Shown here: piece by piece, positions 743 to 44,170 of the stretch
Position numbering within the stretch: position 1 is the first letter of the stretch
Layout of the letters: each line of letters opens with the position of its first letter
IMG/VR virus record: IMGVR_UViG_3300009085_001438
Reading direction: 5' to 3' (one strand)
Source of the DNA: a virus
Length of the DNA: 45,742 nt
Translations under genes and position numbers: made by a program
Notes under the pieces: model-generated
Seen by the model: the letters and a program-made list of their open reading frames with translations, nothing else
The model's database searches: none
Told to the model about the DNA's origin: nothing

Positions 743-1041
743 GCAATCACCACCTGCCGAAGACAGTTTAGTGTTTCATAAACTGTTTTCATACTATCTG
801 CTAGCAATTGATCCTGTTGCGGAGTGCGGGCTGTGTTTAGAATAATTAAATGTTGAATATGATTGCGAGCGTGCAACGCAGCAGTCACAAATTGCTGCTT
901 CTGCTTAGCACATCCTTTTTTAGCTCTGCACTTTCTTAAAAGAAGCACATCATTTACATTGAAAGGGTATTGAGCTTTTAGTTCGTCATATTTAGTATCT
1001 TTTTTCATATTTAAGCCCTCCATATTAACAATATTATACAT
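739..1041 (-). CDS. hypothetical protein
   Basis: 100-aa minus-strand ORF in the co-directional packed array, overlapping its neighbours by 4 nt. Confidence 0.4.
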   Translation of the reverse strand: MYNIVNMEGLNMKKDTKYDELKAQYPFNVNDVLLLRKCRAKKGCAKQKQQFVTAALHARNHIQHLIILNTARTPQQDQLLADSMKTVYETLNCLRQVVIA

Positions 1042-1074
1042 AGAGTGCTTGCAAAGATCCAGTATTTCATTAAA

Positions 1075-2514: not shown

Positions 2515-2535
2515 TTCCCTCTCCCAATTTAGAAA

Positions 2536-2570
2536 GCAGCCTCGGCAAACCCGAGGCTGCTCTAGTATTG
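2536..2570 (-). terminator. hairpin GCAGCCTCGG-loop-CCGAGGCTGC followed on the minus strand by a TTTCT run
   Basis: 10-bp perfect GC-rich stem seen directly. It lies downstream of the 2571..2828 structured region and immediately upstream of the 1957..2514 start. Confidence 0.4.
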
Positions 2571-2828
2571 TCCCGGGAAAACCCCTGGGACGTAGCAGGA
2601 GGCGTTTTGAAGCTTTTTCTTCCTAGGTAAGATGCTTCCACTCACCGGAACATCAAGTGTGCCCCGGGAAAACGTCTCCAACACTGAAGCGCACTCAACA
2701 CGCTTCAGCTACCGCAGTTGCTAGTATGGTATTATTCAGACTGCAACTCCGGTTCATCAGGCACCCCTTGACATTACTCAGCATCAAGAGGTGCCTACAT
2801 AGCTAACATTCATCATTTTTCTCTCCAG
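2571..2828 (-). ncRNA. candidate structured noncoding RNA (no ORF, GC-rich, multiple hairpins)
   Basis: 258 bp with no ORF on either strand in an otherwise fully coding region. Contains a 15-bp stem hairpin (AGGCACCTCTTGA...TCAAGGGGTGCCT), the hairpin CTGAAGCG-N8-CGCTTCAG, and a repeated GTTTTCCCGGG motif. Bounded downstream by the 2536..2570 terminator hairpin. Confidence 0.2.
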
Positions 2829-3404
2829 TTACCTCTTCATAGCTTCAAAAATATCAAGCATTTCATCTACGTGCACAAGCACTTCCCGGTACCCACTGTC
2901 ATGCCCGTGATCCCAGCAATAAGCTTCTGCTATTTTTGCAGCCTTTGGAGTTGCACCAGCTCGGATGAAAAGAGTGCAAATATCTTCATGAAAACGTGCT
3001 GTTTTAAGACTGCTTTTATGTCTCCATGCAAGGCGAGCTTCCTGCAGATCAGCCGAGTTTGATACTGTTTGCTTAGTTGGGTAAGGATCCGTGCTGTCAT
3101 ACTCAAGTGCATCTATTTTCTTTTTTAACGTTTCCGTGCACGTAACTTCGGTACACTGGTATACTTCGTATTCACCTGCAGGTACATCTTGCACTCTATG
3201 AGCAATCTTAGTTACAGTAACATCAAACGTGTAGTTACCGGTGTTTAATACCTCCACCGCACCTTCATAGGATGAGAGGTATTCATAACTTACAAGGAGA
3301 ACCTTTCCTCCTTTTTTCCCAGTAGCAACAGCGTAACTTGAATATCTTGTCGGCAGTTCATTTGCGATCATGGTGCATACATGTTCAACATTGATCTGGG
3401 ACAT
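2829..3404 (-). CDS. hypothetical protein; C-terminal domain paralogous to 3549..3878
   Basis: 191 aa. The C-terminus FHEDICTLFIRAGATPKAAKIAEAYCWDHGHDSGYREVLVH aligns with the FHEDLYQAFIGLGATPRAAAVAASISWQDGHSYGFDEVLSH region of the neighbouring gene. Confidence 0.5.
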   Translation of the reverse strand: MSQINVEHVCTMIANELPTRYSSYAVATGKKGGKVLLVSYEYLSSYEGAVEVLNTGNYTFDVTVTKIAHRVQDVPAGEYEVYQCTEVTCTETLKKKIDALEYDSTDPYPTKQTVSNSADLQEARLAWRHKSSLKTARFHEDICTLFIRAGATPKAAKIAEAYCWDHGHDSGYREVLVHVDEMLDIFEAMKR

Positions 3405-3451
3405 TGTGCGTTCCTCCTTTAGTTTGTTAGCTTTATCCTCACTACCATTAT

Positions 3452-3493
3452 GTATTAATTATACCAACAAACCAGGAAGAAATCAAGTGTTTT
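3452..3493 (-). promoter_or_regulatory. conserved promoter element copy A (minus strand: CTTGATT-N17-TATAAT, extended -10 TGg)
   Basis: -35 TTGATT (rc of 3481..3486), 17-nt spacer, -10 TATAAT (rc of 3458..3463). One member of a 10-copy repeat family. Confidence 0.5.
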
Positions 3494-3548
3494 GTAGTAT
3501 AAAATGCAAATATTTAGACTTTCAGTTATTATAAAGCACTTACTACAT

Positions 3549-3878: not shown

Positions 3879-3895
3879 TATGTGAGCATAAAAAG

Positions 3896-3968
3896 AGCTG
3901 GCGGCGGGCTACGATCCCACGGCCTCTCGCTTACAAGGCGAGTGCTCTACCAACTGAGCTACACCAGC
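3896..3968 (-). tRNA. tRNA-Thr (anticodon UGU)
   Basis: Minus-strand read GCTGGTG TA GCTC AGTTGGTA GAGC A CTCGC CTTGTAA GCGAG AGGCC GTGGG ATCGTAG CCCGC CGCCAGC T. Perfect 7-bp acceptor, 4-bp D stem, 5-bp anticodon stem, loop CU-UGU-AA. Atypical T-loop ATCGTAG (A54/T58 instead of T54/A58). Confidence 0.7.
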
Positions 3969-3979
3969 TAACCAATTCT

Positions 3980-4015
3980 GCCTTAATTATACCAGTAATG
4001 GAAAAAATCAAGCTT
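3980..4015 (-). promoter_or_regulatory. conserved promoter element copy B (extended -10 TGgTATAAT; -35 TTGATT at only 14-nt spacing)
   Basis: rc of 3986..3991 is TATAAT, preceded by TGg. Sits directly upstream of tRNA-Thr. Confidence 0.45.
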
Positions 4016-4016
4016 T

Positions 4017-6203
4017 TTACACCGGAATTAAATCTTCCTTTAAAGTGATAGTGTATGTAATATCTCCTAATGTCATAGAGTTATTTTCTCTAGACGTGAA
4101 CTCGTCGAACCACTTGTTACCTAAGATGATTGCAAATTTAGTACGCTGCACTTTAGCTCGAAGTGTTGCCAACTCCTTTTGGAGCTTCTTTAACCTACTA
4201 TCTACTTGGGCTAAAGCACTTGAAATGTTTGCACCTTGCACAAATGCACTACTCCAACGAGTAAGTTCCGGCTGTAAAAGCTGCTCTCTTGGGGTGAGTT
4301 TTTTAGATGCAGTAACTTTATGGATAACATCTTCCACTTTTGGTAATGAACTCAAACCCGACATAGAAACCGTAAAAACTTTGGCATAATAGGAATCTGT
4401 AGCTGCTAGGTCTTCTTTTGGCGGGTTAAACCCATTATTCGTTACACCATGCTCTTTAAGATATTCAATTTGATCACTTGTAAGTCCTTCCAACCCGTGC
4501 CGTGTCACAAATACGCCAGCTGTGTCATAAGATGTCTTTAAATACTTTAACACTTTAACCGAAGCTTGCAATTGCAGCATCTTATAGGTATTTTCAAAGA
4601 AAGCGACAGCTGATGTATGACCTTTAGCAATAGCTCGATTCATCACAGGCACTTTGGTTAAATACACTTCGTACACTTCATCCTCTTTCCAGGTTCTGGA
4701 CTGGTCTATCATACCTTCATGCCAGAGTTTTAAAAAGGTAACCTCGGACATTGACATAGGTAGCACTTCTACGTTAGGAAAGCCGTCCCTAACAATAGCA
4801 TAGTTCCTATAGATCCAAGTTGGAAACCAAAGCTCCTTAAATCCCTTTTCCTTGTAGTTTCGTCTTAGCTTAATTTTACCATCGAATCGGGTGAGCACGG
4901 AAAGGTTTAACATCTTTTCATTCCAGGTCACTGAAGCAAACGGGCATTTAACACCACTGTTTGCAACAAAGTCCGGGTAGCCTTCTTTTGTAACAGAAGG
5001 AACTCCAATACGCTTATACTGAAAAGCTGGATGCTGAGGGTAGAAATAAGCATTAGGATCTTCAAGTAACAAATCGACTGCATCTAACAAACAGAATGCA
5101 TCTTCTTTTGGCAAATGTGAAGTGGATCGGCCGTTAATGAAGCGTTTGTTGTGCTCAGAAATTGCACTTTGGAGTCTCTTCTCTACCACACCATATTCAT
5201 CATTAGTGAAAGCATTACTTGTAATGTCAATCAGAGCTTTATCTCCTAAAGTACCTAGCACTTCCAGGGCAACATCAGATTGCATGCGCTGCAAAAGCAC
5301 TAACGCAGCTGCATATGAGCCTTTAACTAATGACTCCGCTTTCCCATTCTGTACATTAGCATCAGTGAATTTTACTTCAGTGCCTTTAGGTGTAGTTGTT
5401 AGAGCATAAAGATACTCTTTCCCTCTACCCCTAGCAACTGTAAAACTAATGCTACCCTTATCATCCGGCTGGTATATATTAACACCAGCTCTAGTTAAAC
5501 TAAACAGAAGCGAAGCACCCTGAAATTCTAAAACATCCACTGAAATCCGGTCACTCTCAACAGAACTTGTTACAAAATCAGTTAACGCAATATCAAATTT
5601 TTCCAAATTATCACTGTGCGTCAAAGAACCCCCGAAAGCTTCAGCCATTTGCGACATTAACTCTTTGTTGTAGTAGTTTCCGTAACCTACCAAAAGGCTC
5701 GCTGTGATAGTTGGACTCACTTCTTTGATAGCCTTAAAAATAGCAATTTTTTCCTTCGGGTAGCTACTAACCACTGGGTAACCGTCTGTGAAAAAACACA
5801 AAGCAAATCGATTACTAAAGATCTGAAGATCCTCGGTAATCGTTTTAGTAGCTGCTAAGATCTCTGAAAAGCAGGTCAAATCTACAGTTGTGCTATTGTT
5901 ACGTATAGCTTGTTCCAGAATAGCATAATCGCTGTCATCAGCTATCTTGAACCCTTTAAGAATGAAGTTGAATTTACCTTCTCCACTAAACCACCCAATA
6001 GTGATAGTGTCTCCAACAGGTAACTTTTTAGCACGCACAATAAGATCCTGCACCAAATCAGGTAGTGTATCATACATAGAACCGGATCTATCATAGATCC
6101 AAATATGGTTAGTTCTACCTACTTCTTCTTTAGTTTCTTCAGGCTTAGTGTTGATCTCTTGCTGAACTAAAAATAAGTGATCTCTAATCTGCAAATATTT
6201 CAT
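4017..6203 (-). CDS. von Willebrand factor A (vWA) domain protein, 728 aa
   Basis: N-terminal HIWIYDRSGSM (DxSxS MIDAS motif) followed by a vWA-like alpha/beta region. The C-terminal ~500 aa have no recognisable motif. AGGAG-type SD. Confidence 0.6.
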   Translation of the reverse strand: MKYLQIRDHLFLVQQEINTKPEETKEEVGRTNHIWIYDRSGSMYDTLPDLVQDLIVRAKKLPVGDTITIGWFSGEGKFNFILKGFKIADDSDYAILEQAIRNNSTTVDLTCFSEILAATKTITEDLQIFSNRFALCFFTDGYPVVSSYPKEKIAIFKAIKEVSPTITASLLVGYGNYYNKELMSQMAEAFGGSLTHSDNLEKFDIALTDFVTSSVESDRISVDVLEFQGASLLFSLTRAGVNIYQPDDKGSISFTVARGRGKEYLYALTTTPKGTEVKFTDANVQNGKAESLVKGSYAAALVLLQRMQSDVALEVLGTLGDKALIDITSNAFTNDEYGVVEKRLQSAISEHNKRFINGRSTSHLPKEDAFCLLDAVDLLLEDPNAYFYPQHPAFQYKRIGVPSVTKEGYPDFVANSGVKCPFASVTWNEKMLNLSVLTRFDGKIKLRRNYKEKGFKELWFPTWIYRNYAIVRDGFPNVEVLPMSMSEVTFLKLWHEGMIDQSRTWKEDEVYEVYLTKVPVMNRAIAKGHTSAVAFFENTYKMLQLQASVKVLKYLKTSYDTAGVFVTRHGLEGLTSDQIEYLKEHGVTNNGFNPPKEDLAATDSYYAKVFTVSMSGLSSLPKVEDVIHKVTASKKLTPREQLLQPELTRWSSAFVQGANISSALAQVDSRLKKLQKELATLRAKVQRTKFAIILGNKWFDEFTSRENNSMTLGDITYTITLKEDLIPV

Positions 6204-6779: not shown

Positions 6780-7925
6780 TTAACTCCTTTCTCTAACGAC
6801 TTTCTTCAGCACCACATCAGATAGATAATTTAAGGATGCTGATCCATCATTATTAAAATACCAGATATTTCCATGATCATCTTGCTCAAGCGCTTTTGCT
6901 AAAATGCTTACCTTCTCTTCACACGTGCATTGACTAGCTAATCGTTTATGAATTTGCATTTGATCCAATCCGCGCTTTATTAGCCGCTCCATTTGTAAGT
7001 GAGCCGGACAAGCAACAACTAGCACATTATTATTACAAATGTGGTTAAGGTGTACTTCAGCTATGAGTGCGAAATTTAACACATACAACCCAGGACCTTC
7101 CGATAATTTAGCACGAATGCCATGTAATGTGCAAGGTGTTAAAAGAGTTGTCAGTGTTTTAACTGCTGAGGAACTCCCAAACACCTTTTCAGCTAACACT
7201 TTGCTGTTGATTGTTTCTGTTTTTGGATTTAGGATAATCTCCTTTCCAAAAGCTCTTATAACCTTTTGACGAGCTTCCATATACATGGCATTGCATGTAG
7301 AGTGATAAATTTCTTGAGTAATTTCATCCAAGTCAATCTCGTAAAACGGTATGGAAGATGTAGAGGTGTGTATATCTCGAAGCTTAGCTGTTATGTAGCT
7401 CTTTCCCACTCCGATTTCACCTGTAACACCTAAAATGTACTGCTTGTTTACTTTTGCTTCCAATGCTTCTTTCACTGCAAGAGGTGCACGAGGCGTAATA
7501 TCCAGGTGTAACTTTACCCTTTGTTTGAGTGTGGTGGATGATAGATCTGCATATGCAGGATCTGTGGGTAAAAATATTGTTTGAATATCTGGAGCTAGGA
7601 AAGCATTAACTTTGTACAGGGCACTTTCTGCTTCATAATCTTTCGCATTTCGGAGTCCACGCACAATTGTTTTTGCTCCAATTGTTTTCGCAAAATCTAC
7701 GGTTAACCCAGTGTAGGAACGGACACGTACATTAGGGAGATGTTTTAATGCATGTACTGCTAATGTTAATCTGTCAGCAATATTGAGAGTGGCTACCTTA
7801 TCCTCACTAGCTCCCAGCCCAACAAATACTGAGCCGAACATTGAAGCGGTACGTTCAATGATGTTTATGTGCCCTTGATGAATGGGATCCCCGCTTATTG
7901 GAATTAAACAAATACTAGTCTGCAC
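6780..7925 (-). CDS. coaDE: bifunctional phosphopantetheine adenylyltransferase / dephospho-CoA kinase (CoaD-CoaE fusion)
   Basis: N-term IPISGDPIHQGHINIIERTA matches the PPAT (T/H)xGH nucleotidyltransferase signature (E. coli YPGTFDPITNGHLDIIERA). C-term YILGVTGEIGVGKSY is a P-loop, and NVLVVACPAHLQMERLIKRG matches CoaE (YIVALTGGIGSGKST ... RVLVVDVSPETQLKRTMQRD). GTG start with AAGGAGG SD. Confidence 0.8.
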   Translation of the reverse strand: MQTSICLIPISGDPIHQGHINIIERTASMFGSVFVGLGASEDKVATLNIADRLTLAVHALKHLPNVRVRSYTGLTVDFAKTIGAKTIVRGLRNAKDYEAESALYKVNAFLAPDIQTIFLPTDPAYADLSSTTLKQRVKLHLDITPRAPLAVKEALEAKVNKQYILGVTGEIGVGKSYITAKLRDIHTSTSSIPFYEIDLDEITQEIYHSTCNAMYMEARQKVIRAFGKEIILNPKTETINSKVLAEKVFGSSSAVKTLTTLLTPCTLHGIRAKLSEGPGLYVLNFALIAEVHLNHICNNNVLVVACPAHLQMERLIKRGLDQMQIHKRLASQCTCEEKVSILAKALEQDDHGNIWYFNNDGSASLNYLSDVVLKKVVRERS

Positions 7926-8193
7926 ACAGCCTCCTTATTGCAGCTTTTAATTGGCTGCATAAAGTTTTCTTAGCTGTAACCGGGACGTGCAAACGTAAAT
8001 CCAGCTGATATGCATCAGTCAAGTCATGTGCAACTGAAACTAGCGTCCGATTGTCTTTTAGTTCATCAACTAACCACTTGAGCAAACTAAGTGCTTGATA
8101 CGTCACTTCATTTGAGCTAGTTACACCTAAAGCGTACTGCAGCTCTTTCATGAAATCTGCATTTACCTTAAAGTGCACTTCTACTTTTTTCAT
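7915..8193 (-). CDS. hypothetical protein
   Basis: Minus ORF; likely start at Met16 (MKKVEVHF) preceded by GGAGAAAT. Confidence 0.4.
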   Translation of the reverse strand: MKKVEVHFKVNADFMKELQYALGVTSSNEVTYQALSLLKWLVDELKDNRTLVSVAHDLTDAYQLDLRLHVPVTAKKTLCSQLKAAIRRLCAD

Positions 8194-12169: not shown

Positions 12170-12549
12170 AGTGCTTTCTCTTTAAGAATGAACTTTTCTT
12201 TCAAGGCTTCAATAAGAGTAAAAAATTTAGCGTGAGTTGCATAATTATAATTTAGCTGAACAGCGTCATCCAAATCAAACGCCTTCTTTAGAGTTTTGAT
12301 AAGAATGTCCAGTTGCGAGTGTAAGTACTGTTCTAATAGGGGGCTTCTTCCGCCCGCCACCTCATCCCACAAACTCGTATATATCAATTTTTTGACCATA
12401 CTCCTATCTGAGTAGTTAACCCGCAATACAGCTACAATCAACTCACAAAGAGCTTCAAGAAATTTTTCTTCATAATTTTCTTCACAGAAGCATCCTGTGC
12501 CTGGCCTATAGAAATCCATATCTTCCTTTCTTACGTGCACGCCCACCAA
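12166..12549 (-). CDS. hypothetical protein
   Basis: 127-aa ORF. Confidence 0.4.
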   Translation of the reverse strand: MVGVHVRKEDMDFYRPGTGCFCEENYEEKFLEALCELIVAVLRVNYSDRSMVKKLIYTSLWDEVAGGRSPLLEQYLHSQLDILIKTLKKAFDLDDAVQLNYNYATHAKFFTLIEALKEKFILKEKAL

Positions 12550-15523: not shown

Positions 15524-16165
15524 TCAGATTCCTTTCTCGGATATAGCATTTTTAACGTTTTCGTAAAACTCTAACTTTGCATGATCTTCCTTGTCCAAAA
15601 ATGCCCCGGAGAGCTTAGTGGTTTTCATTACGCTAGGGTGTTCCACACCTCGCAATTTAACACACAAATGCTGAGCTGAAATATGCACTGCTACCCCGAG
15701 ATTGCCCTCACACACTTTATCAATGTATTGATGAATTTGCATTGTGAGTTCTTCTTGAATTTGAGGTCTTCTTGCAAACCACTCCACTATTCTATTTATT
15801 TTACTTAACCCAATCACTTTACTATCTGGCGTAGGTATGTAAGCTACATACGCGTGGCCAAAAAAACTCACATGGTGGTGTGCACAAAAACTATTCACTG
15901 TAATATTACCTTGAAACACCATACCATCATAGTGATTCATATTATCAAAAGCTGTAATAACAGGAGGTGTTGTGTAGCATCCTTGGGCGATTTCATTAAG
16001 CCACATTTTTGCAACCCGCTTAGGTGTGTCTTTCATGTTTGGATCCGCTTGCCAGTTAAACCCAAGAGCATCTAAAAACTTTGCGTATGCAGCTTCAGCT
16101 AAACGCAACCTTGTTTTAATTGCTTCTTGTGAAAGTATTTCGTTGCTATTACAAAACTCTAACAC
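15524..16165 (-). CDS. folE: GTP cyclohydrolase I
   Basis: HHVSFFGHAYVAYIP...SKVIGLSKINRIVEWFARRPQIQEEL...HLCVKLRG matches the FolE core (CEHHLV..G.A.VAYIP...GLSKINRIV..FA.RPQVQE). Confidence 0.9.
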   Translation of the reverse strand: MLEFCNSNEILSQEAIKTRLRLAEAAYAKFLDALGFNWQADPNMKDTPKRVAKMWLNEIAQGCYTTPPVITAFDNMNHYDGMVFQGNITVNSFCAHHHVSFFGHAYVAYIPTPDSKVIGLSKINRIVEWFARRPQIQEELTMQIHQYIDKVCEGNLGVAVHISAQHLCVKLRGVEHPSVMKTTKLSGAFLDKEDHAKLEFYENVKNAISEKGI

Positions 16166-16176
16166 TCTTCTTCCTC

Positions 16177-17079
16177 CTACTGTCTAAGTAATTTTGCACA
16201 GTGTATCTGGTAGGCACATAAGTTGTGGTCCAACAGTTCAAAACTAGTTGCACGCACAGGGCAAATATCAATCCCACCTCGTCTCGTGTAAACAGCTGCT
16301 ACCATTAAATCCGAAGGTTTGCAATAGGTAAACAATCTTTGATAAATCATTTCTACAACTTCTTCATGAAAATGGTTTTCATTCCTGAATGAAACAATGT
16401 ACTGCAGCAAAGACAACTCAGATAATTTGTGGTAGGAACGCATGTATACAAATAACGTGCCCCAATCAGGCTGATGAGTAATTTTACAGTTGCTCCGAAG
16501 TACATTAGTTGTGCATGCAAGGATGTTTGGTGCATCTTGTTCCACGCTTTGTAATAGTGCGGGATCCTCTTTGAAAGATGTAAACTTGATGCCACCTACT
16601 CCTTCTAATTGTTCCAGCACTGTCCATTCACGTTGAAAAACAGGTGCGTTGCCTGCTTCTTCAAAATATTCCACAGCTACTCGCACCTCTAAAAGTTCAC
16701 TCAGATCCCTTCGAATACAAGCAAGCACGCCTCGCAATGCCTCATCTTTTGTAGGCCCCATCTGTGTCATGTTGAATGAATTTAAGTACAGCTTTAAGCT
16801 CTTACTCTCTACTATATACTGACTATAAGATGGGTAGACGATTTTAGCCACTCCGCTTACAGGTAAATTATTATTGGTAAGAAAACTCACTTCGTAAGCA
16901 TTCCACACATCGTACCCAATAAATGGAAGATCAGTATCCTCTATACCGTACTGCAATCTATTTTCCGAACGCGGAACGCGAACTAGAACGCTAGGATCAT
17001 ATTTTACAGGTGCGTCAACGCGTTTACCTAAAATGTGCTCTTCAGCTTTGGTGGCTGTTTTTGGTGTTGGTTTTAACAT
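16177..17079 (-). CDS. queF: NADPH-dependent 7-cyano-7-deazaguanine (preQ0) reductase, type II (two-domain)
   Basis: ESKSLKLYLNSFN (the QueF motif), SNCKITHQPDWGT (catalytic Cys / QPDW), YIVSFRNENHFHE and YTRRGGIDICP align end to end with E. coli YqcD/QueF. Confidence 0.9.
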   Translation of the reverse strand: MLKPTPKTATKAEEHILGKRVDAPVKYDPSVLVRVPRSENRLQYGIEDTDLPFIGYDVWNAYEVSFLTNNNLPVSGVAKIVYPSYSQYIVESKSLKLYLNSFNMTQMGPTKDEALRGVLACIRRDLSELLEVRVAVEYFEEAGNAPVFQREWTVLEQLEGVGGIKFTSFKEDPALLQSVEQDAPNILACTTNVLRSNCKITHQPDWGTLFVYMRSYHKLSELSLLQYIVSFRNENHFHEEVVEMIYQRLFTYCKPSDLMVAAVYTRRGGIDICPVRATSFELLDHNLCAYQIHCAKLLRQ

Positions 17080-20951: not shown

Positions 20952-21029
20952 AAACACACCTCCTGTGAATAATTTTAATCAATTTACAGATTTTAGTGTG
21001 AAATGTTGGGAGGAAACAAAGAAAAAGCG

Positions 21030-21058
21030 GGAAGAGCTTTCCCGCTTTTTATGTGATA
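21030..21058 (-). terminator. rho-independent terminator (GCGGGAA-GAGC-TTCCCGC followed by a T-run; bidirectional)
   Basis: Perfect 7-bp GC stem. On the minus strand it is followed by TTTTTCTTTG, directly downstream of the 21072..21434 stop. Confidence 0.5.
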
Positions 21059-21947: not shown

Positions 21948-22090
21948 TTAGCACTCCTTTTTGTTACATGATGTTTTTGACCGCTCTCGGATGCTGGCCA
22001 CGACGCAGGCATACGCCTGCCCCGCAGCCTGGATTTGAACCACCGCCCGCCGTGCATCTCTAGTTTAACGGGAAGAGTAGTCTTAGATTT

Positions 22091-22309: not shown

Positions 22310-22669
22310 TTAAATCTCTCCGTTAACTTTACTAGCCCGGTTATATTTAACATCTAAATAAGCAAAACTTTGGCCTGGGTCCTTTGATTGGCACGCTTGT
22401 AATAGGTCTTTTAAAATATTTTGGATGTTCTCAGGAGCAAAAGAGTATAAAAGGCCTAAAGCTCCTTTTACTAGAACATCAGGATCTACATTTAGGAGTA
22501 GTTGTTTAACGTTGTCTATGGTAGCGGGCCGTAGTTCCCTTAAATTTAAAATAACATTACACGCTCCTGTTGTGGTGGATAAGTCAAGTGTTTCTGTTAA
22601 TAAAGCTGTTTCTAGTAAATCTCGTACCTCTTGGATTTGAGTTTCCCGTAACACAAAAACTTGCTGCAT
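22310..22669 (-). CDS. hypothetical protein
   Basis: 119-aa ORF preceded by promoter copy I. Confidence 0.45.
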   Translation of the reverse strand: MQQVFVLRETQIQEVRDLLETALLTETLDLSTTTGACNVILNLRELRPATIDNVKQLLLNVDPDVLVKGALGLLYSFAPENIQNILKDLLQACQSKDPGQSFAYLDVKYNRASKVNGEI

Positions 22670-22697
22670 AAATATTTCCTCCTTCTTATTTTATTTA

Positions 22698-22735
22698 TTG
22701 TATAATATAACCTTTTTAGCTAAAAATCCAGTATA
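22698..22735 (-). promoter_or_regulatory. conserved promoter element copy I (CTGGATTTT variant of the -35)
   Basis: rc of 22725..22730 is TGGATT, 17-nt spacer, rc of 22702..22707 is TATTAT. Confidence 0.4.
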
Positions 22736-22781
22736 AAATAAGAAGATGAGTGGTATACAGCTTCCCAACAGAAGTTATATT

Positions 22782-23061: not shown

Positions 23062-23472
23062 TTATTGTGCATTCTTTAATGCTGCAACCACTTTTCCTGC
23101 TTCCAGCTTATACCGGCCACCTTGAGATCCTTCAACAATAATAGGGTATTTATGGTATTGAAGTTTCAAACCAACAATCTTTACACTTTTACCATCTACG
23201 GTAATGCGCTTTCCAAGATCTTCGGGTTTCATACCAAACATTGTAGCATAATGCCGAAAATCAGATTCCATCATAGCATCCTGTGAAACGACGGGTGCAG
23301 CTGAAGTAGGAGGCACTTCTTCGATAGCGCGGCCCTCAACTCTTACCCGAAAGAACCGCTGACCAAAACGCATAGTGCCTGTCGTAGTTACTAACCCATA
23401 CTTCTGCCCAACTTCTGCAACAGCCTTTTCCAGGTCTTCATGGAGTTTCTTTATCGTTGAGCGGTCTAACAT
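23062..23472 (-). CDS. hypothetical protein
   Basis: 136-aa ORF downstream of promoter copy C. Confidence 0.45.
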   Translation of the reverse strand: MLDRSTIKKLHEDLEKAVAEVGQKYGLVTTTGTMRFGQRFFRVRVEGRAIEEVPPTSAAPVVSQDAMMESDFRHYATMFGMKPEDLGKRITVDGKSVKIVGLKLQYHKYPIIVEGSQGGRYKLEAGKVVAALKNAQ

Positions 23473-23504
23473 TTTGTTTTTCCTCCTTTTGTATGCTCCT
23501 ATTA

Positions 23505-23548
23505 TGTATTAATTATACATACAAATAAGGAGAAAATCCAGTGTTTAT
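23505..23548 (-). promoter_or_regulatory. conserved promoter element copy C
   Basis: TGGATT-N16-TATAAT, then the conserved leader TAATACATAATAGGAGCATACAAAAGGAGGAAAAAC, nearly identical to copy H. Confidence 0.5.
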
Positions 23549-24703: not shown

Positions 24704-25804
24704 CTAATTTGTTGTTAAAAATGCTTGAAATAACCTTTCTTTTGCACTATCAGTCATGTTATAGATAAAATCCCCTAATTTCGCCCCTTTTCGAAGAGCA
24801 AACATGATGTGCTGTACTGGACCTTTCACAGCTAAAGCAAACTCTTTCTGATCCTCAATGCAGTTCGTGCATGTGAATAATCTACCAACCTCTTTTACAA
24901 TAGCTGCGTAAGCAGTTACGTAAGGTTGAAAATACTCCCGATCTTCAGGGAAAGAACTCAGGTACTCCTCATGGTCTTGAGAGCATACTAACGATACAAT
25001 TCTCTTAACTGACAATACTCCATTACATCTTAAGTGTGCAACAGCTAAATAAGCTGGATTTTTAACTTTTATCCGCCATTGCTTCTCGGGCCAATAGCAC
25101 ACATAACCCTCATCCAAAGGAGGTAATTCTCTTAAGGATTCTACAAGCTGAGGTATGGTGTCAAAGCGAAAATAAGGCGGTATGGAAACATTGAACTGTT
25201 TAGCGTAATACTCAAGATCCGCTAAGGCTATATCTTTGCCTGTTACACGATTCCGGGCATTTAACAAATAAATATCAGGGTTAGAATATCTCGTAACAAT
25301 TCGCGTCTCAGGAGAAACTAATTCAAATGAAAAAGTTAGATCTTCTGGTAAAACCATGCGCTGAAAAAAATCTTGGGTAGTTGCACCCAGCACACCTTCA
25401 AAAATAGATCTAAAGGAGTTACCTAAAGCAGAGTTCCCCTCTGCGAATGCCATACTACGCGTACTGCATTCCCATTGGTTAGCATGGTATACATTAAGCA
25501 AAGATCCGTCTATCTTTTTAAAGCAAAATGCTTGTGTGATGGCAAATTCTTCGTGTTTTGGATCTTCCGTGTAATTAAAAAACCTATCAAAAGGCCGGCA
25601 CAAAACTCTATAATCAGGTAGGGATAGAATTAAACCTCGGCACTCTCTAACAATCGGATCATGCTTTGGGGATTCAATTTGATCATAGTTTAACACAGCT
25701 CGATCATCATAATACCGCACTTCAATGTGCAAAGTGTCTTCTAAAGATTTCAAAGGGTGTGTTTTTAGGTACTTTAAGATTTCCATGTGAGTCGGGTTCT
25801 CCAA
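24704..25804 (-). CDS. RNA ligase, T4 Rnl1 family
   Basis: ECRGLIL, RPFDRFFNY and FKKIDGSLLNVY (nucleotidyltransferase motif I KxDG) align with T4 Rnl1 ECRGIMF, RPMEKFFNL and LTKEDGSLVSTY. Similar length (366 aa). Confidence 0.75.
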   Translation of the reverse strand: MENPTHMEILKYLKTHPLKSLEDTLHIEVRYYDDRAVLNYDQIESPKHDPIVRECRGLILSLPDYRVLCRPFDRFFNYTEDPKHEEFAITQAFCFKKIDGSLLNVYHANQWECSTRSMAFAEGNSALGNSFRSIFEGVLGATTQDFFQRMVLPEDLTFSFELVSPETRIVTRYSNPDIYLLNARNRVTGKDIALADLEYYAKQFNVSIPPYFRFDTIPQLVESLRELPPLDEGYVCYWPEKQWRIKVKNPAYLAVAHLRCNGVLSVKRIVSLVCSQDHEEYLSSFPEDREYFQPYVTAYAAIVKEVGRLFTCTNCIEDQKEFALAVKGPVQHIMFALRKGAKLGDFIYNMTDSAKERLFQAFLTTN

Positions 25805-26229
25805 CCTAATTCAAGTTCAATACACCGCATACCAGGCTTAGTATCTAAGTAAGCTTCCAACACCTTAACGTTTGTAGGGCACACATTAGTTAGAGCTAAT
25901 AACTTGCGATTATTATAGAGGATAGCTACCTCTTGAGCAACTGCATTGGGCTGTCTTTTTGCTTTATATTCCCAATCTTGAAGTGCATTCACTACTTGCC
26001 AATCCACATCTAGAGTAAAATGCAGATTGCCGGAACCCCGGCTATTAACTAAAAAAAGATTATCCGACTCACACTGAATCACACCTTCTGCATATGCATG
26101 CTGAACAAGATATTTACGATCTACTTTTTCCAAGCCTAATTCACGTAAGAATTGAGCTTCCTGATCCGGTGTTCTTGGAATTTCTAAAGAAACTCTAGTA
26201 TTAGGTATTTTTAGCATCAACACAAACAT
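25774..26229 (-). CDS. hypothetical protein
   Basis: 151 aa downstream of promoter copy J. Its end overlaps the RNA ligase start. Confidence 0.45.
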   Translation of the reverse strand: MFVLMLKIPNTRVSLEIPRTPDQEAQFLRELGLEKVDRKYLVQHAYAEGVIQCESDNLFLVNSRGSGNLHFTLDVDWQVVNALQDWEYKAKRQPNAVAQEVAILYNNRKLLALTNVCPTNVKVLEAYLDTKPGMRCIELELGWRTRLTWKS

Positions 26230-26254
26230 CTTTTTCTCCGAACTTAACTAGCTT

Positions 26255-26295
26255 GTGTCCTAATTATACACGTATCAGCTGGAAAAAACAAGGCT
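26255..26295 (-). promoter_or_regulatory. conserved promoter element copy J (TTGTTT-N17-TATAAT)
   Basis: rc of 26286..26291 is TTGTTT, 17-nt spacer, rc of 26263..26268 is TATAAT, followed by TAGGACACAAG (as TAAGACATAAT in other copies). Confidence 0.5.
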
Positions 26296-26296
26296 T

Positions 26297-26710
26297 TTAC
26301 TGCTTACAAAACTGCGATATGTTAGCTGTGCGGGTTTGAACCTTTTCTGCTAAACGTGCTAGAAATACTTGCAAAAACTCGAAGTTGGTCACCGATACAA
26401 ACATTACATTGTTTACATGACTTTTACTATAGTAGCACATGCTGTATTCAATAAACTCTACCGCTGACATGCATAAGCTAATAGGTAAGACTAGCGTGTT
26501 CAATGCATACAGTGTAAGAGGTTGCCCATTTATCTCAATTACAGTTATCATCTGCATTCGTTGGGTAGCTAAGTTTATTCCCTGCTCTTCATTAAATGCT
26601 TCTTTCTTAGAACATCTACACCAACCAAACCTCAAACACCCATCGTCATCTATATCTGCCACGAATAACCCGACAGGTTTTTGTTTTTCCCGTATCCATT
26701 GAATCACCAT
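26297..26710 (-). CDS. hypothetical protein
   Basis: 137-aa ORF. Confidence 0.45.
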   Translation of the reverse strand: MVIQWIREKQKPVGLFVADIDDDGCLRFGWCRCSKKEAFNEEQGINLATQRMQMITVIEINGQPLTLYALNTLVLPISLCMSAVEFIEYSMCYYSKSHVNNVMFVSVTNFEFLQVFLARLAEKVQTRTANISQFCKQ

Positions 26711-29507: not shown

Positions 29508-29714
29508 TTATCTTTTAATTACTTCCGGCTCTATACCAAAATGTTCTCTCACGTACTCTACTCCTTTACCTTTTGGAGCATCAAATCTAATACTTAGTGG
29601 AGTTGAATCCACTTCTTTTGGAAAAGGAGAGGGTAAGTCAGTCAAAATTGATACATAATCACCACGTCCTGGTGCGATAAGAACTGTAATTTTTGTAATG
29701 TTCAGTTTGTCCAT
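29508..29714 (-). CDS. hypothetical protein
   Basis: 68-aa ORF downstream of promoter copy D. Confidence 0.4.
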   Translation of the reverse strand: MDKLNITKITVLIAPGRGDYVSILTDLPSPFPKEVDSTPLSIRFDAPKGKGVEYVREHFGIEPEVIKR

Positions 29715-29744
29715 GTCTCTCTCTCCTTCTTTTGTAGGTGTATG

Positions 29745-29785
29745 TTTAAATTACACATACAAAAGCTGGGAAGATCCAGTTTTCA
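29745..29785 (-). promoter_or_regulatory. conserved promoter element copy D (degenerate: CTGGAT-N18-TGTAAT)
   Basis: rc of 29774..29779 is CTGGAT and rc of 29750..29755 is TGTAAT. Confidence 0.35.
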
Positions 29786-29791
29786 TGTGGT

Positions 29792-30832: not shown

Positions 30833-31156
30833 CTACATGGTTACGCAATGCACCACATTCCAATAGCCTTGAGGGCGTGTTGTTAACGCTTTTCCTTTTT
30901 TACCACGAGCATTTAATAACTCAGTGCCGCCACCTGGACGGATACATATATGTCTCCGAGTCCTGTACAAATAAGCCGCTGTACCATCATCCTTTTTTAA
31001 ACCCACTTCCGTTCTCACAAACACTAAAGCACTTCTCGGTTGATGTTCCGTCACTTCAAACGTTTTGTATTCATGCTCTTCCGGGTGACCATAACTATCA
31101 TGGTCCAAAATATCCACTTTTAATTGATCAATAATTGCTTGCTGCTTCTTGGTCAT
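30833..31156 (-). CDS. hypothetical protein
   Basis: 107-aa ORF downstream of promoter copy E. Confidence 0.45.
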   Translation of the reverse strand: MTKKQQAIIDQLKVDILDHDSYGHPEEHEYKTFEVTEHQPRSALVFVRTEVGLKKDDGTAAYLYRTRRHICIRPGGGTELLNARGKKGKALTTRPQGYWNVVHCVTM

Positions 31157-31177
31157 AGCACACTCCTTCTTTATTTT

Positions 31178-31218
31178 CTTTAATTATACCAAGAAAGTAA
31201 GCAAAAATCAAGTTTTTT
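31178..31218 (-). promoter_or_regulatory. conserved promoter element copy E (TTGATT-N17-TATAAT)
   Basis: rc of 31206..31211 is TTGATT and rc of 31183..31188 is TATAAT. Confidence 0.5.
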
Positions 31219-31226
31219 ACATTATT

Positions 31227-43304: not shown

Positions 43305-43775
43305 TTAGTACCGGTTCCGCCCGAAAGCTAGTTCACATTTACTTGCTTTTCTACAATTCTTTTCGTGGAACAGTGGCACTCTCTTATCAGCGTGCTTTTC
43401 CATCAACCACTTACCGCCGATACCCTCAGCTGAATGAAGGTTCATCCAAGTGTCCCACCGGCGAGTTGTGCCGGTTTGAAACCGGGTCATAAGAATAATC
43501 TTAGCACCTTGTGTTGTAGTCAAAGCGTACCTGTACCAGCACTTTTGCGTTCTATAATAGATTGAATCCTTATCGCAAGCCCAAGCTACCAAGTTCTTAC
43601 GGATATCATTATCAAAAATTTCAATGGCCTTAGTGCCTATGTACTCTCCATTATCATGGTCGAAAACTTTGTCATGAGCACTAAACCACTCATTTTGTTC
43701 CTCAGTTAACCAATTCTCCGGGGTAAAAAGCTCAGCTAACTCCTTGGGGTCTGTGAAGAAATATCTGCTTGCCAT
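43305..43775 (-). CDS. hypothetical protein
   Basis: 156-aa ORF downstream of promoter copy G, preceded by GAAAGGAGAT. Confidence 0.45.
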   Translation of the reverse strand: MASRYFFTDPKELAELFTPENWLTEEQNEWFSAHDKVFDHDNGEYIGTKAIEIFDNDIRKNLVAWACDKDSIYYRTQKCWYRYALTTTQGAKIILMTRFQTGTTRRWDTWMNLHSAEGIGGKWLMEKHADKRVPLFHEKNCRKASKCELAFGRNRY

Positions 43776-43857
43776 AGGGATCTCCTTTCGAGAATTGTCA
43801 TGCTTGGTACCAGGACATTTGGTCAGCTTGAGCTGTTTGCATTCACTTACTAACTAA

Positions 43858-43905
43858 TTATGTCTTAATTATACATACAAACAGAGGGAAAATCAAGTGT
43901 TTTTA
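43858..43905 (-). promoter_or_regulatory. conserved promoter element copy G (TTGATT-N17-TATAAT)
   Basis: rc of 43891..43896 is TTGATT and rc of 43868..43873 is TATAAT, followed by TAAGACATAATTAG. Confidence 0.5.
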
Positions 43906-44076
43906 CACATTCAATTGAGCTTCTATAAATGTGATTAACTCACGGCACTCTACTTCCTGCTGAAACAAGTCACTAATGTAGTCCGTATTGGGCTCCCCGC
44001 CATCCTGAAAATACTGGCTAATATCCTCTTGCAAATTTTGCAGCCGAGCTTTTGCGTTTTTTAACTCGCACTCCAT
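43903..44076 (-). CDS. small hypothetical protein (57 aa), below the ORF-track cutoff
   Basis: AAAAGGAGGAAGTGCA-ATG start. Reads MECELKNAKARLQNLQEDISQYF... The stop immediately abuts promoter copy G. Confidence 0.35.
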   Translation of the reverse strand: MECELKNAKARLQNLQEDISQYFQDGGEPNTDYISDLFQQEVECRELITFIEAQLNV

Positions 44077-44102
44077 TGCACTTCCTCCTTTTGTATGCTC
44101 TA

Positions 44103-44150
44103 TTATGTCTTAATTATATATATACAAACAGGGGGAAAATCAAGTGTTTC
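44103..44150 (-). promoter_or_regulatory. conserved promoter element copy H
   Basis: rc of 44138..44143 is TTGATT and TATAAT/TATATA lies 17-19 nt downstream. Its leader is nearly identical to copy C (GAGCATACAAAAGGAGGAAG). Confidence 0.5.
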
Positions 44151-44170
44151 TTTACCAAATACCTAAGTGT

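Follow-up and report, generated by a model that had tools for sequence, protein, structure and literature searches.

A dispersed family of sigma70-like promoter elements, probably read by the host polymerase, in a contig of an uncultured large phage

Organization of the contig

The DNA analyzed here (the window) is an entire JGI metagenome contig of 45,742 bp, and is part of the genome of an uncultured large phage. In the segment shown, two 90%-identical copies of an intergenic element lie 247 nt apart on either side of a single 57-aa ORF (43903-44076), and further copies are dispersed through the window. The window is ~39% GC, with negative GC skew throughout, and its ~85-90 ORFs and three tRNA genes (Thr, Asn, and Glu) are all on the minus strand; ~10% of the sequence is non-coding. 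Pfam matches identify a CoaBC-type flavoprotein (DFP), a PPAT-CoaE fusion, GTP cyclohydrolase I, a QueF-like protein, a dCTP deaminase-like protein, RNase HII, a T4-type RNA ligase, an FtsH-like AAA protease, an RdgC-like protein, a pentapeptide-repeat protein, and a 798-aa major-vault-protein-like protein, and these recognizable products have auxiliary functions typical of large phages. No window protein matches the Pfam families of sigma factors, RNA polymerases, or known appropriation factors, nor AsiA- or MotA-like families, and the sole DNA-binding candidate is one weak HTH_3 match. A megablast comparison of 9.7 kb of the window with 50,697 phage records returned no match.

Several other features of the window are worth noting. 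The 798-aa protein (37947-40343, minus strand) has major-vault-protein shoulder and repeat domains (7.6e-28), and thousands of ~50% identical homologues are present in bacteria (Polyangiales, Planctomycetota, and others) and in huge phages; it is unusual for a phage to carry a vault-protein-like gene. The protein is 46% identical to proteins of the uncultured huge phages LR756500 (462 kb) and LR756501 (735 kb). A second large protein, of 728 aa, has 28% identical homologues in AR9/PBS1, and also in many other large phages. The genes for GTP cyclohydrolase I and the QueF-like protein (15524-17079), taken with the PTPS/QueD genes carried by two relatives described below (L060 and L061), suggest a 7-deazaguanine (queuosine-precursor) pathway, which may serve DNA modification; if it does, promoters read by the host polymerase would themselves be modified. 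Tandem small paralogues at 6223-6483/6512-6778 (91% identity across a 35-nt stretch) and at 2829-3404/3549-3878 (with a C-terminal domain in common) point to local gene duplication in the region. Downstream of gene 2829-3404 is a 314-nt GC-rich gap without an ORF (2515-2828, minus strand), whose predicted fold has an MFE of -129 kcal/mol (z -6.6 versus shuffles) and includes a terminal 13-bp GC hairpin; an Rfam search of this gap matched no family, and it is a candidate structured non-coding RNA. Segments resembling the T arm of a tRNA (GGTTCAAATCC and GGTTCAACTCC) lie within GC-rich sequence in two other gaps (21948-22090 and 41959-42138, minus strand); neither ARAGORN nor Rfam calls them in these gaps, and they are possibly degraded tRNA genes or tRNA-like structures.

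An extended intergenic element at eleven sites

The initial annotation described ten copies of a conserved promoter-like element. Reading the sites directly, we found the element at all ten coordinates on the minus (coding) strand, and it also emerges independently from a generic repeat finder, where it tops the dispersed repeats of the window (families D2, D3, and D16). The pattern CTKGATY-N17-TRTAMT has seven matches in the window, all on the minus strand, where shuffles predict 0.03. The annotation had proposed a motif search with the consensus as a check, and a two-block weight-matrix scan of the window cleanly separates 11 sites, scoring 22 to 52 bits, from the next best site at 10.7 bits and the best plus-strand site at 8.8 bits. 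The additional site, at 1021-1069, had been missed and is recovered both by a loose regular expression and by the weight matrix. In leave-one-out scoring, nine of the ten claimed copies are robust (23.6 to 49.3 bits), the eleventh copy scores 17.5 bits, and the copy at 22698-22735 is weak (5.0 bits); the background, from 200 first-order Markov-simulated windows, has a maximum of 20.6 bits and a mean maximum of 11.4 bits.

All 11 copies lie between genes on the coding strand; none is on the plus strand or inside coding sequence, and each precedes a minus-strand gene or tRNA, as had been claimed for the original ten. The predicted start is followed by a Shine-Dalgarno (SD) sequence and ATG at 18 to 86 nt or, at one copy, by tRNA-Thr at 11 nt. 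The existence of the family, its statistics, and the position and orientation of its members are matters of direct observation, as is its conservation in relatives (see below). A generic sigma70 consensus scanner found no excess of sites over shuffles (36 versus 52.6, 8 versus 15.9, and 44 versus 46.3), and what stands out in the window is the extended family only, not general promoter-likeness.

Anatomy of the element

With the copies aligned at the -35, their consensus reads (G)TAAAAA(C/G)(A/G)C-T(T/G)GAT(T/C)TT(C/T)C-N10-(T)(A/G)TG-TATAAT-TAA(G/T)AC-ATAAT, with the A-tract at -44 to -38. The most informative positions are C(-36) and G(-33), the T-tract that follows the -35, the hexamer of the -10, and the CA of the predicted start; in the weight matrix, information is high at -42 to -40, -36, -29 to -27, and -6 to +4. 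The -10 given in the initial annotation, TATAAT, is perfect in eight copies, and the other three have TATACT, TGTAAT, and TATATT. The -35 is TTGATT in five copies (a 4/6 match to TTGACA), TGGAT(T/C) in five (3/6), and TTGTTT in one, such that position -34 is T in six copies and G in five, and neither the canonical C at -31 nor the A at -30 occurs in any of the 11. The reported spacing of 16 to 18 nt describes the eight copies with 17-nt spacers, but not the copies at 44143 (19 nt), 22730 (15 nt), and 4011 (14 nt, the tRNA-Thr copy, which has a proper TGn). An extended -10 TG was said to be frequent; however, it is correctly placed (TGnTATAAT) in only 3 of the 11 copies (31211, 4011, and 3486), and in most copies lacking a proper TGn the TG lies directly against the -10 hexamer (TGTATAAT). 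Sequence varies in the mid-spacer, except that five copies (44143, 43896, 23540, 3486, and 29778) form a subfamily with a common TTTGTATG. In four copies, the TAA stop codon of the upstream gene lies within the conserved GTAAAA.

A significant hairpin is present at only one copy (37937), with the other leaders folding like shuffles, and the best inverted-repeat arms within the elements are 4 to 5 nt, the same as in random segments of the window. Leader folding and the inverted-repeat background therefore rule out a stem-loop or a dyad operator as a component of the element.

The individual copies

The copies are described here in descending order of coordinate, all on the minus strand, with leave-one-out scores in parentheses and with the gene that each is predicted to drive. 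The copy at 44101..44151 has TTGATT at 44143, a 19-nt spacer, and TATAAT (42.7 bits), and precedes the 57-aa ORF (43903-44076). Relative to its neighbor it has a TA insertion in the spacer, and its predicted start is the A of CATAAT, near 44106. At 44152-44170 (minus strand) there is a partial second copy of its 5' end, ~24 nt upstream (AAACACTTAGGT versus AAACACTTGATT), which may have been left behind by recombination or slippage between copies of the promoter. The neighboring copy at 43856..43904 (43896 copy; TTGATT-17-TATAAT; 49.3 bits) is the closest of the copies to the consensus, contains the TAA stop of the upstream ORF inside its A-tract, and is predicted to drive a 156-aa gene (43305-43775) through an 86-nt leader.

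The copy at 37897..37945 (37937 copy; TGGATT-17-TATACT; 33.2 bits) is directly 3' of the stop codon of the 798-aa vault-protein-like gene, and ahead of gene 37479-37835. It is associated with the single significant hairpin (37858..37910, minus strand), which has a 22-bp outer stem and a dG of -30.9 kcal/mol (z -6.5; an equally good fold in 0 of 200 shuffles). The 5' arm of this hairpin includes the conserved TTAAGACATAAG of the 37937 copy, and the structure may act as a 5' stabilizer or attenuator.

Five copies lie in the central part of the window. Those at 31171..31219 (31211 copy; TTGATT-17-TGGTATAAT, a proper extended -10; 29.5 bits), 29738..29786 (29778 copy; TGGATC-17-TGTAAT; 24.9 bits), and 26251..26299 (TTGTTT-17-TATAAT; 23.6 bits) precede, respectively, a 107-aa gene (30833-31156) with a 20-nt leader, a 68-aa gene (29508-29714) with downstream CoaBC-type genes, and a 151-aa gene (25774-26229) with the RNA ligase gene. 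The copy at 23500..23548 (23540 copy; TGGATT-17-TATAAT; 44.6 bits), ahead of a 136-aa gene (23062-23472), has a leader, ATAATAGGAGCATACAAAAGGAGGAA, that nearly matches the leader of the 44143 copy; promoter, leader, and SD are common to the two over ~75 nt, and the downstream proteins are unrelated. The initial annotation assigned a shared leader extending to the SD to copies "C and H", which by list order are those at 22698 and 37903. The leaders of these two are not common, and the actual pair is 23505-23548 and 44103-44150. The copy at 22692..22738 (22730 copy; TGGATT-15-TATATT), upstream of a 119-aa gene (22310-22669), is a doubtful member of the family, scoring 22.1 bits when part of the matrix training set and 5.0 bits when left out.

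The remaining three copies are at the other end of the window. At 3974..4019 (4011 copy; 37.7 bits), ahead of tRNA-Thr (3895-3968) and overlapping the stop codon of the 728-aa gene, TTGATT is only 14 nt from TGGTATAAT, and this is therefore probably an extended -10 promoter. The copy at 3446..3494 (3486 copy; TTGATT-17-TGGTATAAT; 35.0 bits) precedes a 191-aa gene (2829-3404), and the eleventh copy, at 1021..1069 (TGGATC-17-TATAAT; 17.5 bits), precedes an 89-aa gene (739-1008).

Distribution and transcription units

The copies are grouped at 1.0 to 4.0 kb (three), 22.7 to 31.2 kb (five), and 37.9 to 44.1 kb (three), leaving a 17-kb stretch (~4.0 to 22.7 kb) without any copy, which includes the genes for PPAT/CoaE, dCTP deaminase, an aldolase, FolE, QueF, an epimerase, and a phosphoesterase. 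There are three strong intrinsic terminators on the coding strand, at 21022-21050, 41978-42016, and ~2527-2555, the first two of which have z scores of about -5.2 to -5.6. Because the 17-kb stretch has no copy and a strong terminator (21022-21050) at its upstream end, other promoters must exist, and the genes from 4.0 to 20.7 kb must be served by another promoter type. A search by k-mer enrichment for a second motif shared among the gaps lacking the element found nothing convincing.

Most copies begin ~5 to 20 nt after the upstream stop codon with no terminator between, so that upstream transcripts probably read through them, and the copies are probably internal boosters in a long co-directional array and not the heads of isolated units. 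The earlier proposal that the family defines the transcription-unit architecture is thus overstated, given both the 17-kb stretch without a copy and the probable read-through into most copies. The further suggestions of one temporal class and of possible help from a phage factor also reach past what the evidence supports.

Conservation in relatives

Of the relatives, a 122.8-kb Logan contig (L040; SRR33452760_9552) is closest, with 66% amino acid identity in the 798-aa protein. In the 21.8 kb scanned, it has one near-perfect copy of the element, TAAAAAGCTTGATTTTTTCC-ttcaatgt-ATGTATAATTAAGACATAAT, in which both blocks are identical to window copies and the mid-spacer differs, indicating that conservation is at the contact points and does not merely reflect recent duplication. 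The L040 copy is intergenic and ahead of an 86-aa gene whose product aligns full-length and collinearly with that of window gene 739-1008, behind the eleventh copy (24% identical; pairwise E 1e-8); the two genes are probable orthologues. L040 also has a different intergenic repeat, ~AAGGTTnnyTnCAGCAAAyAAA, in at least 10 copies in the 21.8 kb (e.g., 3060-3085, 4100-4126, 4560-4585, 5006-5030, 7911-7935, and 12375-12400), often beside tRNA genes. The window lacks this repeat, which may represent a second class of promoter or a site of processing.

Three other contigs (L059, L060, and L061), encoding homologues of the 728-aa protein with 50 to 54% amino acid identity, each carry a similar promoter once or twice per ~20 kb, of the form AAAAnnGTTGA(C/T)TTTTC-N-TATAATTAAkACATAAT, some having a canonical TTGACT (C at -31). 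The -35 box and T-tract recur in relatives spanning 31 to 44% GC, and conservation of the contact blocks persists across phages whose proteins are strongly diverged. In the annotated parts of the relatives there are no sigma, RNA polymerase, AsiA, or MotA-like genes. More widely, the 18-mer GTATAATTAAKACATAAT, which spans the -10 and start region, is present in 21 further IMG/VR contigs, of which one (L005) is a distant relative, and about half of these contigs have TTGACT or TTGACA 17 nt upstream. Because the 18-mer lies behind canonical -35s elsewhere, the downstream block is generic to primary-sigma promoters and not specific to this phage.

We found the family itself in no other genome: two exact-pattern scans of IMG/VR yielded nothing beyond single sigmaA-type promoters, most of them unrelated, and with the 798-aa protein as a guide, scans of IMG/VR, JGI metagenomes, and GTDB genomes returned only relatives of at most 57% identity, none having the motif. 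No such family is present in 42 kb of phage LR756500 (24% GC), whose 46% identical version of the 798-aa protein was noted above. Assemblies of the same phage from two other samples are 99.9 to 100% identical to the window with no indels; the eight SNPs between the window and one of these (L057) are all outside the two promoter copies covered, and are too few to be informative. The phage is present at the sites sampled as JGI 3300027972 and SRR5468435.

Probable recognition by the host polymerase

The elements are probably strong, constitutive-type promoters, most likely read directly by holoenzyme containing the host primary sigma (sigma70/sigmaA) and most plausibly early in infection; the reading polymerase, start site, strength, and timing are all predicted from the motif. 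The A-tract at about -44 to -38 would serve the alpha C-terminal domain as a proximal UP-element subsite, CT(T/G)GAT(T/C) would be the -35 element contacted by sigma region 4, and the 17-nt spacer would fix the geometry. TG or TGn would act as the -16/extended -10 and TATAAT as the -10, contacting sigma regions 3 and 2, with TAAGAC forming a putative AT-rich discriminator and C-A(+1)TAAT providing a pyrimidine/purine start ~7 nt past the -10. Collectively, the copies would reinforce transcription along the long co-directional gene array.

The sigma70-like reading of the initial annotation is well borne out by the anatomy of the element, its position and orientation, and its conservation in relatives. 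Recognition by the host polymerase specifically would be consistent with the 17-nt spacing, the TATAAT, the SD and ATG or tRNA downstream, the blocks preserved in relatives, and the lack of a sigma or RNA polymerase domain in the window. Nonetheless, some features count against it. The -35 is systematically off TTGACA and alternates between T and G at -34, which is unusual for sigma region 4 alone, and could result either from common descent or from a different reader. The upstream part of the spacer has a conserved TTTC/TTCC at -29 to -26 that is not a classical contact, and three copies have spacers of 14, 15, and 19 nt. Furthermore, some huge phages encode their own sigma70 (PMC7162821), and the window is only part of a genome.

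These features raise the question as to whether the promoters are instead read by a phage-directed polymerase, using either a phage sigma70-family factor or host sigma with an activator bound at CT(T/G)GATTTTC, ~-36 to -26 (sigma appropriation), which would make them a phage-specific, possibly middle, promoter class. The -35 region is conserved as a 10- to 11-nt box, with C at -36 and G at -33 invariant, only T or G at -34, and C at -31 and A at -30 never present; this box recurs with its T-tract in relatives of 31 to 44% GC, and huge phages are known that encode AsiA-like proteins as well as sigma70 (PMC7162821). Still, we consider such a reader unlikely, as neither the window nor the annotated parts of its relatives has a sigma, RNA polymerase, AsiA, or MotA-like match, the 17-nt spacing with a perfect TATAAT is enough for recognition by a primary sigma, relatives have a canonical TTGACT in the same context, and the box is unlike the T4 MotA box, (a/t)(a/t)(a/t)TGCTTtA (PMC2988021). 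A more specific version, that the box CT(T/G)GAT(T/C)TT(C/T)C and the invariant start region define a promoter class of one clade (the window contig, L040 and L060 of Logan SRR33452760, and L059 and L061 of JGI) whose reader is a phage sigma70 homologue or a sigma-appropriating activator, is rather unlikely.

The elements might also be mainly sites of recombination, or "regulatory cassettes", in which 45 to 75 nt of shared promoter and leader mediates the insertion, deletion, and shuffling of small genes, with promoter activity moving with the cassette. This would fit the near-identical pair bracketing the 57-aa ORF, the ~75 nt of promoter, leader, and SD that the 23540 and 44143 copies share ahead of unrelated proteins, the upstream stop codon embedded in GTAAAA in four copies, the abundance in the region of small ORFs without Pfam families, and the precedent of promoter-early stem-loop (PeSL) elements (PMC2839356). 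However, the stem-loop that defines such cassettes is missing, only one copy has a significant hairpin, the 4- to 5-nt inverted repeats are no better than in random window segments, and the other assemblies of this phage, at 99.9 to 100% identity, display no gain or loss of cassettes. As the main explanation it is quite improbable; a secondary role in recombination is possible and would be compatible with host-read promoters without replacing them. Similarly, the subfamily sharing TTTGTATG in its spacer resembles a set of recent copies, and the similarity as a whole could be the trace of a recently duplicated intergenic segment without a selected function. This is very improbable, as conservation is concentrated in the two polymerase-contact blocks while the mid-spacer varies, all 11 copies have the same orientation and the same distance logic to the SD and ATG, and a phage with 66% protein identity (L040) retains both blocks around a different spacer.

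With recognition by the host polymerase as the preferred reading, the copies mark eleven probable transcription starts and provide an annotation handle for this phage and its relatives, a motif for scanning the rest of the genome, and corrected gene starts (e.g., 739-1008 and 37479-37835). The primary-sigma geometry, together with strong AAGGAGG ribosome-binding sites, gives a hint as to the type of host, and suggests that at least the auxiliary-gene region within the window depends on the host polymerase. The promoter family does not itself open a new question.

Comparison with known promoter systems

Multi-copy promoter motifs are familiar from several phage systems. The early promoters read by the virion RNA polymerases of phiKZ-like and AR9 jumbo phages, AAATATATATTAT-N6-G, are a single AT-rich block with neither a -35 nor a 17-nt spacer, and are read by a phage multisubunit polymerase (PMC5312081). 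Like the window element, they are a strongly conserved, AT-rich motif of early type that occurs in multiple copies in a large phage, and at the level of the phage there is a tie to AR9/PBS1 through the 28% identical homologues of the 728-aa protein. The window element has two parts at a fixed 17-nt spacing, and its -35 box contains G/C, which rules out a promoter of this type. T4 middle promoters, in which a MotA box ((a/t)(a/t)(a/t)TGCTTtA) centered at -30 replaces the -35 (PMC2988021), are likewise ruled out, as the window box, CT(T/G)GATTTTC, lacks TGCTT.

Closer resemblances are seen with the PeSL cassettes of the T4-type phages RB49 and phi1 (PMC2839356). In both cases a repeated sigma70-like promoter with an AT-rich upstream tract spans the interval from the stop codon of a small gene to the next SD, one pair of copies brackets a single small ORF, and some leaders are shared, but the stem-loop terminator/attenuator that defines PeSLs is absent from 10 of the 11 window copies.

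Gram-positive sigmaA promoters reportedly have upstream A-tracts and a -16 (TRTG) region (Helmann 1995; Voskuil and Chambliss 1998). The window element is similar to these in having TTGAnn-17-TATAAT, with an A-tract close ahead of the -35 and T(A/G)TG immediately before the -10, followed by strong AAGGAGG ribosome-binding sites. It differs in that the TG of most copies is against the hexamer, one base closer than in the canonical TRTGn.

The closest analogue is the set of early promoters of T4. Multi-copy, over-determined early promoters are textbook phage biology. Those of T4 are "uber" promoters with UP, -35, TGn, and -10 sequences plus extra consensus regions, which are read by the unmodified host sigma70 polymerase and outcompete host promoters (PMC2988021). 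The window element departs from them in its -35 (TTGATT or TGGATT, and not the T4 early consensus), in having a correctly placed TGn in only 3 of 11 copies, and in that no Alt-like ADP-ribosyltransferase is seen in the window. What the two have in common are many copies, a near-consensus -10, a -35, an upstream tract rich in A/T, and conservation at positions beyond the hexamers, as well as a co-oriented placement ahead of small, mostly uncharacterized and auxiliary genes. In these respects the family is an ordinary one, of a promoter kind long known from phages such as T4.
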